64,000 nt of DNA from an uncultured Planctomycetia bacterium (GCA_964642015.1 CAZXLF010000002.1:95678-159677); one strand, 5' to 3'. Numbered from the stretch's first letter, positions 58,757 through 64,000 are shown. The notes: generated by a model from the letters alone, not told the origin. Numbers and translations: made by a program.

Positions 58757-60142
58757 ATGAACAATGGCAGGGTGGTCAGCGTCCAAGGACCTGTAGTCGA
58801 TGTTCAATTCACCAATTCGATGGATGTGCCGGATATTTACGGTGTGATCCTTGTTAAGGCGCTTGATGGGAGGCAAATCACGTTGGAAGTCGCCGAACAT
58901 CTGGCGAACAACACGGCGCGTTGCATCGCGATCCAGGCGACAGTGAATCTGCAGCGTCATGCGGTTGCCAAGCCTACCGGCAAGACGATCGAGATCCCGG
59001 TGGGGGACAGTTTGTATACGAGAGTTATCAATTGTATCGGCGAGCCGATCGATCAGCAAGGACCCATCGAATCAAAACTTTACAGCCCGATCCGCAGGCC
59101 TGAATCGGGAACGCGGGTACCAGATTTCAGCAAAGAAAAGATCAAAGGCGATGAGCTTCTTGAAACAGGTATCAAGATCATCGATCTTTTGTATCCTTTG
59201 GTTAAGGGCACGAAAACCGGGATACTCGGAGGCGCGGGTCTTGGAAAAAGTGTTCTGATGCTTGAGATCATTCAGCATATTGTGCAGAAGCATCAAGGAA
59301 GCTGCGTTTTTGCCGGTATTGGAGAGCGCCTGCGTGAAGGCAACGAACTTTATTACGAGCTTCGAGAGCATGGGCTTCACACAAAAACGATGATGACGTT
59401 CGGTCAGATGAATGATCCTCCGGGTGCACGCTACGGTGTCGCGATGACCGGCATAACGATGGCCGAAGCGATCCAGAGGCAAAATAAAGACGTGATCTTT
59501 TTTGCGGATAACGTTTTCCGTTTCATCCAGGCCGGCGCTGAGATCTCGACTTTGCTCGGCCGCGTACCATCGGAAACCGGCTATCAACCGACGCTGATCG
59601 CCGAATCGAGCGAATTTCACGAACGCATCCGCGATTCACAAGGTTCGGGAGGTTCGATCACATCGATCGAAGCGGTCTACGTGCCCGCCGACGATCTGAC
59701 CGATCCGGCGGTTGTTGCTATATTCACTTTCTTGAATTCATTGATGGTGCTTTCACGCGAAAGGGTCCAGATGGGTCTTTATCCGGCGATCGATCCGCTT
59801 CAGTCGTCCTCGACGAACCTTGATCCCGATGTGGTCGGTCAGAGGCATTATGATGTTTCGCAGGAAGTGATACGCACGTTCCAAAAATATGAAGAACTTC
59901 GCCGTATCGTCATGGTCATCGGTATCGACGAACTTTCCAAATCAGACCGCACACTTTATGAGCGTGCAAGAAAAGTGCAGAATTTTTTGACACAACCGTT
60001 TACTGTTGCGGAGCGTTATACCGGAAAAAAAGGGGATCACGTGCCGGTGGAAATGACGCTTGAGGGTTGCGAGAAGATCCTTTCAGGGAAACTGGATAAA
60101 AAACCGGAACAGGAATTTTACATGATAGGAGCGCTTACCTGA
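58757..60142 (+). CDS. atpD: F-type ATPase beta subunit
   Basis: [19 protein letters not shown]-terminus, [15 protein letters not shown]alker [22 protein letters not shown] (DELSEED variant); alternative upstream ATG 58733; stop TGA overlaps next ATG (TGATG at 60140-60144). Confidence 0.9.
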
Positions 60143-60597
60143 TGCTATTAGGAGAATTATTGATACAAAAAAAGCTGATCACTCAAGCCGAACTGGAGGT
60201 CGCTCTTGCCGAGCAAAAAACTTCCCATGATTTTTTGGGGATGATCCTTGTGAGGAGACAATATCTTAAAGAAGAGGACCTCGTGAAAGCGCTGTCAGAA
60301 CTTTATCATCTGCCCGTCACCAGCTTAAAAAATGAACATATTGATTGGACTCTTGCGATGAGTTTTTCACCGTCCGTGATCCAGGATAACAAGTGTTTGC
60401 CGTTCCGCGAGACGGATCATGGGATCACGGTGGCCATTTTGAATCCGCTCGATGTCGCTGGTGTGGGTCAAATAGAAGAGCAGGCCAGAAATAAAAAGAT
60501 AAATCTTGTGCTGGTGACGACCGCCGATATGCAGACGGCTCTTAAAGAATATCAGCGGCGCGTGGCGGAACGTATCAAGAAAATGTTCGAAGGATAG
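60142..60597 (+). CDS. stand-alone GspE/PilB N-terminal (T2SSE_N/MshEN-like) domain protein
   Basis: 151 aa; LLGELLIQKKLITQAELEVALAEQ and second half repeat pattern typical of GSPII_E N-terminal domain; no ATPase core. Confidence 0.6.
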   Translation: MLLGELLIQKKLITQAELEVALAEQKTSHDFLGMILVRRQYLKEEDLVKALSELYHLPVTSLKNEHIDWTLAMSFSPSVIQDNKCLPFRETDHGITVAILNPLDVAGVGQIEEQARNKKINLVLVTTADMQTALKEYQRRVAERIKKMFEG

Positions 60598-60598
60598 C

Positions 60599-62791: not shown

Positions 62792-62794
62792 CCG

Positions 62795-64000
62795 ATGCCA
62801 CAATTTGTTTATAAAGCCAAAAAGGGACCTTCGGATGTTGTGCAAGGTTTCATTGAGGCGGCGACTCAAGAAGAGGCGGTCGATAAGTTGAGTGATATGG
62901 GACTTTTACCTGTCTTTGTGGAGGAGTCCAAAGGTCCGGTTGTTCAAAAAGAAGTCCCCATTCCGCAGCAAAAAACCAAGGAAGAGACTCCTTCGGCAGC
63001 GAAGCCGAAAATGAATCTTTTTGGAAGGATCAAATCATCGGAGATCACTATTTTTTCCAGACAGCTTTCAAGTCTCTTGAAAGCGGGAGTGCCGATATTA
63101 AGAGCTCTTTGGATCATTTCCGAACAATCCGAGAATCCTAAGTTCAAAGCTGTTTTGGCTCACGCTCAGTCCGAAGTCCAGAATGGGAAACCTCTCTCTG
63201 CCGTGTTGTCCCAATATCCGAAGCTTTTTCCGCCGATTTATATTGCGATGGTTCGTACAGGTGAAGACAGCGGATCGCTGCAGGAGACTTTAATGCGTAT
63301 TGCGATCTATCGCCAGCGCCAGGAAGAGATCCTCTCGAGAGTGAGAACCGCGATGGCTTATCCAGCATTGATGGCGGTGACCGGGATCGGTACGGTGATC
63401 TTCATGTTGACGTTTGTAGTGCCTAAACTTTCCACGCTATTCGCGAATATGGGTTCAAAACTCCCGCTTCCGACCCGCATTCTTGTGATGTTGAGCGGTT
63501 TTTTTCATCAGAAATGGCTTATCGGGGCTTGCGCTTTGCTGATCGTGGGCTTCACATTGTTTCTTCGTCTGAGCGGTGACCTGGCGAAAAAACTTTGGAG
63601 CCAATGGGGTCTTCGAATCCCGATTGTGAAAGATTTTATATTGAAAGCCGAACTTGCGCGTTTTGCAAGAACACTCGAACTCTTGATCAAATCCGGCATT
63701 CCGATCTTAAAATCCATCGAGATAACGGCGCCTGTTCTTAAGAATACGGTGCTTCGCGGGGAATTCGTGAAGATCCTTGCCGATATTACCGGCGGAGGTT
63801 CACTAGGCAAAAGTATGCGCCAGTCCAGCGCTTTTCCTCTTTTTATGTCGAATCTTGTTTCGGTAGGTGAAGAATCAGGAAAATTGGACGAAGCTATGGA
63901 AGAAGTCGCTAACTTTTATGAAAAAGAGACCGATGAATCGATCCGCATCATGACCTCGCTCCTTGAGCCGCTCATGATCCTTGTCATGGGCGCGGTGGTT
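62795..64000 (+). CDS. PilC/GspF-family inner-membrane platform protein (3'-truncated by window end)
   Basis: MPQFVYKAKKGPSDVVQGFIEA... N-terminus and repeated GspF domains (RQLSSLLKAGVPILRAL..., LIKSGIPILKSIE...); no stop before position 64000. Confidence 0.8.
   Translation, partial: MPQFVYKAKKGPSDVVQGFIEAATQEEAVDKLSDMGLLPVFVEESKGPVVQKEVPIPQQKTKEETPSAAKPKMNLFGRIKSSEITIFSRQLSSLLKAGVPILRALWIISEQSENPKFKAVLAHAQSEVQNGKPLSAVLSQYPKLFPPIYIAMVRTGEDSGSLQETLMRIAIYRQRQEEILSRVRTAMAYPALMAVTGIGTVIFMLTFVVPKLSTLFANMGSKLPLPTRILVMLSGFFHQKWLIGACALLIVGFTLFLRLSGDLAKKLWSQWGLRIPIVKDFILKAELARFARTLELLIKSGIPILKSIEITAPVLKNTVLRGEFVKILADITGGGSLGKSMRQSSAFPLFMSNLVSVGEESGKLDEAMEEVANFYEKETDESIRIMTSLLEPLMILVMGAVV

Follow-up and report, generated by a model that had tools for sequence, protein, structure and literature searches.

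Why should the genes of an F-type ATPase run straight into those of a filament-assembly machine? The question is raised by a 64,000-nt stretch of DNA (the window; GCA_964642015.1, CAZXLF010000002.1:95678-159677) recorded as coming from an uncultured Planctomycetia bacterium, in which the F1 beta gene (atpD) is followed by genes for a stand-alone MshEN (GspE_N) protein, a GspE/PilB-type assembly ATPase and a GspF/PilC platform protein. All long open reading frames (ORFs) of the window are on the plus strand, as is every gene located below. An operon resembling that of a type II secretion system (T2SS) is interrupted between gspD and gspE by a giant gene, the gene for an envelope protein that we call tm282 and a seven-gene F-type ATPase cassette. 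We consider it likely that this is the 'symbiotic' F-type ATPase/type IV filament locus of Omnitrophota, and that its ATPase hydrolyses ATP, is not coupled to ions and is co-produced with the filament machine.

Omnitrophota are widespread, ultra-small and probably predatory or parasitic bacteria. To our knowledge, there are no pure cultures, and only gene clusters hint at how these cells attach to and exploit others. A locus that keeps the catalytic head and the c-ring and has apparently lost both ion-translocation parts offers sequence evidence for a rotary ATPase outside bioenergetics. It also presents an F-type ATPase locked to a secretion or pilus ATPase across many species.

Conservation of the link between beta and GspE/PilB

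The initial annotation had argued that the F1-like ATPase and the pilus/secretion engine are co-expressed as one unit. Conservation of the atp-to-pilB linkage was examined in related genomes. One genome per species was scanned with the beta protein, which gave 28 loci, and all window proteins were compared with them by tblastn. Sixteen of the 28 carry the same type of ATPase (beta identity 58-93%); 15 are from Omnitrophota metagenome-assembled genomes (MAGs) and one is labelled Lentisphaeria. The loci informative for synteny are L001-L011, L013, L014, L021 and L026, L012 stopping at beta. The linkage is kept in all 15: beta is followed by GspE/PilB, in some loci with an MshEN gene between them, and by GspF/PilC where the contig extends that far. 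In the Omnitrophota loci, the gene that follows beta begins at a distance of -4 to +20 nt; in the 'Lentisphaeria' locus, L026, this distance is 65 nt. Two further public contigs, L029 and L030, show the same gene order in their precomputed Pfam matches. The remaining 12 loci (Saccharibacteria, Paceibacterota and others; beta about 46-51% identical) have a canonical alpha...beta arrangement and no pilus genes, and GspE/PilB-type neighbours are absent beside beta in the canonical loci of Patescibacteria (the candidate phyla radiation, CPR).

The feature that is conserved is thus beta followed by GspE/PilB, an adjacency kept across at least 16 species. It is this adjacency, and not the tight spacing, whose conservation exceeds chance. 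The junction between beta and the GspE_N gene, to which attention had first been drawn, is not itself a conserved feature. A stand-alone MshEN gene occurs in the window and in L001-L003, L007, L010 (two copies), L011 and L029. Of the 17 related loci in which sequence continues past beta, nine lack this gene, and there beta directly abuts GspE/PilB. Because it is found in only part of the related loci, this gene is a clade-specific insertion, a paralogue of the N-terminal domain of the assembly ATPase itself. What stands of the proposal of a single unit is a conserved, tightly packed and co-directional block; co-expression is suggested by spacing and synteny. The comparison supports the view that the F-type ATPase and GspE/PilB-GspF/PilC genes behave as one conserved unit of this kind.

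The closest beta homologues (68-93% identity), where named, are nearly all from Omnitrophica/Omnitrophota MAGs; related loci bear these names too, and the host is assigned to Omnitrophota on these grounds. An Omnitrophota-type locus is likewise found under the record title 'uncultured Planctomycetia bacterium' in L002, L004, L006-L008, L010 and L011. Such titles are a poor guide to taxonomy, and the name 'Lentisphaeria' given to L026 calls for equal caution. The gene order in L026 is secretin, TPR protein, a 498-aa protein, tm282, epsilon, c, b/delta, alpha, gamma, beta, GspE, GspF and GspG. Two variants were noted among the other loci. In L014 (1-4525), the order is alpha, epsilon, c, b/delta, gamma, beta, and the c subunit keeps its Glu; in L007, a 521-aa multi-transmembrane TPR protein (4868-6433) is inserted between epsilon and c.

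Catalytic head and apparent loss of the ion-coupling parts

Alpha (56387-57871) and beta (58733-60142; a start at 58757 is possible) are matched by Pfam and pass the NCBIfam cut-offs for atpA (567.8 against 554) and atpD (560 against 463). The P-loop GDRGTGKT and the arginine of SVSRIG can be read in the translation of alpha, and the P-loops, the catalytic GERxRE motif, the alpha arginine and the DELSKSD loop of beta were all found in the translations. Alpha and beta thus keep every catalytic motif that was checked, as expected of a catalytically intact F1 head. Their best matches in the PDB are ordinary bacterial F1 structures, at about 500 bits; beta scores 498 bits against canonical F1 and 338 bits against the beta chain of the Mycoplasma G1-ATPase (9io5_A). 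By these scores, both subunits class as canonical F-type and not as Mycoplasma type 2/3.

Gamma, epsilon and c are divergent, c especially, and all three fall under the NCBIfam cut-offs. Gamma (57880-58743) matches Pfam ATP-synt with E=6.5e-35 and reaches 93 bits in NCBIfam against a cut-off of 194. According to a 2026 preprint, alpha and beta are present in 125 of 176 complete Omnitrophota genomes and gamma mostly fails strict thresholds; the divergence of gamma, below cut-offs here, probably explains why most of these genomes were scored as lacking it. The b and delta subunits are fused (55675-56394) into a protein with a transmembrane (TM) helix, a coiled coil and the delta C-terminal domain (Pfam OSCP, residues 163-237 matching profile positions 95-170). 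Its best NCBIfam match, alt_F1F0_F0_B, extends over residues 8-234 and is under the cut-off.

No a subunit (PF00119) was found among the long window ORFs scanned with Pfam, nor in the ATPase block of related loci. Between tm282 and beta, no ORF is left unassigned in the window or in the related loci, and none is a-like. The c-like subunit (55320-55544; 74 aa; Pfam ATP-synt_C, E=3.4e-07) has, by alignment, a Ser in the column of E. coli D61, where Bacillus PS3 has Glu, and no Asp or Glu in either TM helix. Among the 120 closest homologues, this column holds Ala in 40, Glu in 33, Thr in 17, Gln in 14, Ser in 8, Val in 3, Gly in 2, Met in 2 and Leu in 1, so that the site is non-acidic in 87. Glu persists in more distant members (L014, L026 and L029). 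A compensating carboxylate elsewhere in c was considered and ruled out: none lies within a TM helix, and four of the 120 have Asp or Glu only at the N-terminal boundary. The loop GRNPSxAPKIFTAM is nearly 100% conserved in the same homologues, and many helix and flanking positions are conserved at 95-100%. This pattern suggests a ring that is retained for its structure and released from ion binding.

Epsilon (54992-55240; 82 aa) matches Pfam ATP-synt_DE_N over residues 8-81, and its orthologues are mostly 76-83 aa long; the C-terminal helical domain is absent. In bacterial F1, the C-terminal helices of epsilon inhibit hydrolysis. An epsilon reduced to its beta-sandwich is therefore without these inhibitory helices. 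Taken together, the missing a subunit, the lost c carboxylate and the truncated epsilon argue against ion coupling, and we infer that the complex could serve neither as an ion-driven ATP synthase nor as an ion pump.

Between c and b/delta lies an AT-rich gap of 130 nt (55545-55674) that contains a promoter-like TTGAAA-17-TAATAT at 55601-55629. A gap recurs at this position in the related loci (27-279 nt); in the window, as in several but not all of these loci, it is the largest within the ATPase block. It could represent an internal promoter or a means of setting a high c stoichiometry. A 28-codon ORF (MNPALDIKIFNELIKGWANPDLGGLLTG; 55237-55323) fills the space between the epsilon and c genes, overlapping the stop of the one and the start of the other as ATGA. 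As epsilon directly abuts c in most relatives, this small ORF may be spurious or lineage-specific.

Gene junctions from atpD to the filament genes

Direct reading of the sequence confirms that the atpD stop codon TGA (60140-60142) overlaps the ATG (60142-60144) of the MshEN gene as TGATG (60140-60144, plus strand); a GGAG stands 10 nt 5' of this ATG, within atpD. The MshEN gene and the assembly ATPase gene, for which a spacing of 2 nt had been given, are separated by 1 nt (TAG ends at 60597, ATG at 60599). The 3-nt spacing to GspF/PilC (TAA ends at 62791, ATG at 62795) and the overlap of b/delta (55675-56394) with alpha (ATG at 56387), which amounts to 8 nt, are as described in the initial annotation. 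The overlap claimed for gamma and beta depends on the beta start: it is 11 nt with a start at 58733, and the start at 58757 first assumed leaves a gap of 13 nt. The ATG at 58733 is most likely the true start, since it is preceded at 5 nt by AAGGAG and yields the MPN... N-terminus found in most homologues; 58757 is possible.

How much do such junctions say? With the longest ORFs taken, the window has 37 same-strand junctions, of which 23 are of 3 nt or less and nine are -1 or -4 overlaps. Tight junctions also join unrelated genes, for example those of sugar metabolism. Stop/start overlap is the norm in this genome. Tight spacing is by itself of little value as evidence, because most junctions of the window are equally tight, and the overlap taken alone does not support the co-expression that had been argued from it. 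A consensus promoter/terminator scan found no plus-strand terminator-like site at the three junctions, and the promoter-like sites numbered 10, against 13.0 +/- 3.3 in shuffled sequences. As the observed total is under the shuffle expectation, the scan carries little weight either way. A scan of 53800-64000 with Rfam at E<=1 gave no match.

The filament machine and its regulatory domains

The stand-alone MshEN protein (60142-60597; 151 aa; GspE_N, PF05157) contains two tandem 24-residue motifs of the c-di-GMP type, 5 residues apart, and passes the NCBIfam model for this motif, NF053729, over residues 3-53 (59 bits, cut-off 38). The assembly ATPase (60599-62791; 730 aa) combines MshEN, T2SSE (E=3.2e-132) and PilZ domains. 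It scores nearly equally as GspE (578) and PilB (567), both under the cut-off, and the subtype is therefore left open. The exact 730-aa product is not on record, and the public gene call begins 18 codons later; the longer form is retained here because relatives align from residue 1. The C-terminal PilZ domain (residues about 613-725) carries RRAFVR and NISAGG, corresponding to the RxxxR and (D/N)xSxxG motifs. This fusion is present in all Omnitrophota loci with full-length sequence and absent from the 571-aa ATPase of L026. Given the MshEN and PilZ domains, the filament ATPase is probably controlled by c-di-GMP.

GspF/PilC (62795-64000; Pfam T2SSF, best NCBIfam match GspF) is cut by the window end and has 421 aa in L030, a contig that matches the window without a difference over 14,546 nt and adds 6.1 kb. 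Beyond GspF/PilC, L030 encodes a Peptidase_MA_2 protein, a GspG-like pseudopilin, two small proteins, GspK, a PilM-PilN fusion and a 183-aa protein, followed by a convergent TPR gene. The two small genes between the pseudopilin and GspK have no Pfam match; they are probably minor pseudopilins, as genes at the same position in related loci have pilin-like N-termini. The 183-aa protein also lacks a Pfam match and is PilO/GspM-like by position only. Upstream, a T2SS-like block opens with an AAA_22 ATPase resembling ExeA/MshM (22097-22975; E=1.4e-20), which is followed by a T2SS protein C-like gene (22933-23610; T2SSC, E=2.1e-12), a GspD-like secretin with STN, Secretin_N and Secretin domains (23607-25562; Secretin, E=5.7e-48) and a protein matching Pfam TPR families (25559-26659). 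The secretin gene overlaps each neighbour by 4 nt, and the secretin-TPR pair precedes the ATPase block in L026 as well. A secretin, GspE/PilB, GspF/PilC, a major pseudopilin, GspK and PilM/N were thus all found, as in a T2SS or type IV filament system. Neither PilT nor a prepilin peptidase (GspO/PilD), which is often encoded elsewhere, was seen in the window or L030.

The giant protein and tm282

The cassette is preceded by a single ORF for a giant secreted protein of 8,096 aa (29796-54086), with a Sec-type signal peptide and Ig-like repeats. Its only Pfam matches are Kre9_KNH, Reelin_subrepeat-B and Big_7, none of them in the first 3,000 aa. The C-terminal 499 aa recur with 35-65% identity in eight related loci, directly 5' of the tm282 gene. 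The 498-aa protein of L026 was considered as a short form of the giant protein and rejected, having no similarity to its C-terminus.

The adjoining gene (54127-54975) encodes tm282, a conserved bitopic envelope protein of 282 aa with a signal peptide, a beta-sandwich, a three-helix bundle and a C-terminal TM helix. It matches neither Pfam nor NCBIfam, and its 96 homologues are all unnamed and without Pfam domains. The AlphaFold model (pLDDT 86) predicts a signal/anchor helix, a periplasmic beta-sandwich, a three-helix bundle and one C-terminal TM helix, a fold with no PDB match at E<=0.001. Longer homologues are internal duplications of this module and not fusions with ATPase or T2SS parts. 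The tm282 gene precedes epsilon in 10 loci. We considered tm282 as a replacement for the a subunit and rejected this, as its one C-terminal TM helix and the beta-sandwich and helical bundle in the periplasm do not resemble an a subunit. In L031, a Velamenicoccus archaeovorus MAG, tm282 (9797-10621) follows a giant ORF with no F-type ATPase nearby, and because the two occur there without the ATPase, the giant protein may be the primary partner of tm282.

Relation to described systems

The initial annotation was aware of no described precedent for the linkage. There is one: Seymour et al. 2023 (PMC10066038) reported F-type ATPase/type-4a pilus (T4aP) loci across Omnitrophota. They described a non-respiratory F-type ATP synthase homologue beside T4aP clusters in 56 of 111 Velamenicoccia species, and the same linkage in all other Omnitrophota classes; the ATPase and T4aP genes were <=10 kb apart in 57 of 66 contigs. 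They distinguished 'respiratory' from 'symbiotic' ATPase clades, compared the homologue with Mycoplasma type 2/3 ATPases, with which alpha was grouped, and suggested a role in attachment to or motility on host cells. The window shares with these loci the phylum, an F-type ATPase cluster by GspE/PilB-type pilus genes and the giant ORFs found in the same genomes. The distance between ATPase and pilus genes falls well within the 10 kb used there, beta to the MshEN gene being -1 nt, and the nearest relatives of beta outside Omnitrophota are from Saccharibacteria and Paceibacterota, as Seymour 2023 (PMC10066038) also states. The proposed grouping of alpha with Mycoplasma type 2/3 is not supported by the hidden Markov model (HMM) scores obtained here.

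The main text and the supplements searched of Seymour 2023 (PMC10066038) make no mention of the a subunit, the c-ring or protons, nor of direct abutment, a truncated epsilon or a position between gspD and gspE, and these supplements gave nothing on which subunits make up the 'symbiotic' cluster. The 2026 preprint also reports a V/A-type ATPase in most Gorgyraeia. West-Roberts et al. 2023 found T2SS-like loci and pilZ genes flanking the giant genes of Omnitrophota and never mention an ATP synthase. The window locus is thus of a kind that is described genomically and functionally unexplored. Its linkage, published in 2023, is not new; the anatomical details (a, c, epsilon, operon position and HMM class) appear to be unpublished in the literature searched, which yielded no other work on this topic. 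They would correct two readings found there, 'incomplete ATP synthase' and 'Mycoplasma type 2/3'.

The locus shares homologues of alpha, beta, gamma, the epsilon N-domain, the delta C-domain, b and c with canonical F1Fo (atpBEFHAGDC). It differs in lacking the a subunit, the c carboxylate and the C-terminal helices of epsilon, in fusing b with delta and in its order epsilon-c-b/delta-alpha-gamma-beta. The N-ATPase (atpDCQRBEFAG), a second F-type operon, resembles the locus in being non-housekeeping, in its rearranged gene order and in a long b that ends like delta. However, AtpQ, AtpR and the a subunit are absent here, c is without any ion-binding residue, and apart from the 28-codon ORF the ATPase block contains no extra small membrane genes. 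The alt_F1F0 scores exclude membership (506 vs 750 bits for alpha, 497 vs 752 for beta, 26 vs 282 for gamma and 62 vs 225 for b).

The Mycoplasma type 2/3 systems (M. mobile G1-ATPase MMOB1660/1670; MSC_0618/0619) share an F1-derived enzyme, presumed ATP hydrolysis at the surface or in motility, and huge surface proteins. Membership is again rejected by the alpha/beta scores, at 401 vs 600, 420 vs 850, 301 vs 520 and 377 vs 570 bits (MMOB1660/1670 and MSC_0619/0618). These clusters reportedly lack the Fo and stalk genes c, b and delta, a statement attributed to Beven et al. 2012, whereas the cluster here has c, b/delta, gamma and epsilon. In Mycoplasma mobile, huge surface proteins are paired with an F1-like motor (related chain 9io5).

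The flagellar FliH-FliI-FliJ proteins are a precedent in principle, as they form an F1-related module that serves protein export, with FliI resembling alpha and beta, FliJ gamma and FliH b/delta. FliI families of the type III/flagellar export ATPases are only remote matches here (about 180 bits, against cut-offs of about 600), and the enzyme of the window is, by contrast, of the true alpha3beta3 heterohexamer type with a c-ring. With the T2SS and the MSHA-type T4aP (GspC-D-E-F-G-K-L-M; MshE), the locus shares a T2SSC-like protein, the secretin, MshEN-GspE/PilB, GspF, a GspG-like protein, GspK, PilM-PilN and a gene in the PilO/GspM position. It differs from them in the giant gene and seven-gene ATPase cassette between secretin and gspE, the C-terminal PilZ on the assembly ATPase and the extra stand-alone MshEN protein.

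Proposed role and alternatives

We propose that the F-type complex is most likely an ATP-hydrolysing rotary or mechanical module, in which the alpha3beta3 head would turn gamma, epsilon and the c-ring against the b/delta stalk. The stalk would be braced on some other membrane partner in place of the a subunit. The complex would share its transcript with the filament-assembly ATPase and its platform, and their translation would be coupled. The torque or ATP turnover of the complex may be used in the work of a pilus or pseudopilus, to handle the giant protein or to move over a host cell. More speculatively, the rotor or head might be in mechanical contact either with the platform of the T2SS-like system or with tm282 plus the giant protein.

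A bolder version of this proposal, which we regard as possible and on balance doubtful, makes the complex an ion-free rotary motor and a physical part of a hybrid envelope nanomachine. It would be docked through b/delta, tm282 or the c-ring to a GspE/GspF/PilMN platform and, as the cell attaches to its prey or host, would help to extend, rotate or load a pseudopilus, the giant surface protein or both. If true, this would be the third independent recruitment of the F1 fold to a surface or secretion machine, after type III secretion/flagellar export and Mycoplasma gliding.

Several points weigh against a hydrolytic, ion-free module made together with the filament machine. The absence of an a subunit applies to the 64-kb window and a further 6 kb; an a subunit, or a second ATP synthase, may be encoded elsewhere in the genome. 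Some members of the family might bind ions, as 33 of the 120 c homologues, including those of L014, L026 and L029, keep the Glu. Without an a subunit, nothing evident holds the b/delta stalk relative to the c-ring. Owing to the promoter-like site in the 130-nt gap, the block may not be one transcript from tm282 onward. Finally, co-transcription and physical association are argued from spacing and synteny only, and tight spacing, being the rule in this genome, says little.

An ordinary housekeeping F1Fo ATP synthase that stands beside a pilus/secretion operon by chance, with overlaps due to compaction of a single-strand genome, appears quite improbable. Alpha and beta would suit such an enzyme, as they pass the atpA and atpD cut-offs and best match canonical F1 structures, and the 23 of 37 window junctions of 3 nt or less, some of them between functionally unrelated genes, would be expected from compaction. 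However, the locus is without an a subunit in any relative examined, the c subunit lacks its carboxylate, as do 87 of 120 homologues, and the order epsilon-c-b/delta-alpha-gamma-beta is non-canonical. Chance would also have to produce the GspE/PilB adjacency in 15 of 15 informative species, down to a beta identity of 58%, when CPR operons are without it, and 'respiratory' and 'symbiotic' clades have been separated by Seymour 2023 (PMC10066038). The losses of the a subunit and the c carboxylate could instead be steps in the decay of a relic ATP synthase, with gamma, epsilon and c sinking under the NCBIfam cut-offs. We find this scarcely credible: every locus keeps the seven genes intact, beta identity is 67-93% among many species, the catalytic motifs are preserved, and c is near-invariant save at one site, many positions being 95-100% conserved. 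Intact genes and a near-invariant c therefore speak for purifying selection and not for decay.

It is also possible, if unlikely, that the F-type ATPase serves the giant protein and tm282, in export, anchoring or movement, and is tied to GspE/GspF only through the operon. Mycoplasma mobile, with its huge surface proteins and F1-like motor, is a precedent for such a pairing, and the order of giant C-terminus, tm282 and epsilon is kept in eight loci. West-Roberts 2023 places giant genes beside T2SS-like loci, which fits as well. Yet the partners separate in both directions: the V. archaeovorus MAG has the giant ORF and tm282 with no ATPase beside them, and in L026 tm282, the ATPase and GspE/F/G are present without a giant gene. 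The junction of the ATPase with GspE is the tightest and most constant, and it is unbroken where the link between giant protein and ATPase breaks. A module made with the filament machine remains the reading that we favour.

Other genes of the window

Three small genes separate the TPR gene from the giant ORF in the window. Between the secretin/TPR genes and the giant gene lies a 406-aa ORF (27774-28994) with a Y1_Tnp (IS200-like) domain. Upstream of the T2SS-like block, positions 267-21665 are occupied by about 20 genes for the synthesis of sugar nucleotides and glycans, all in one direction and for the most part overlapping. Their products include a UDP-GlcNAc 2-epimerase, many GT1/GT4/GT9 transferases, FkbM methyltransferases, a carbamoyltransferase and a cupin-type mannose-6-phosphate isomerase.

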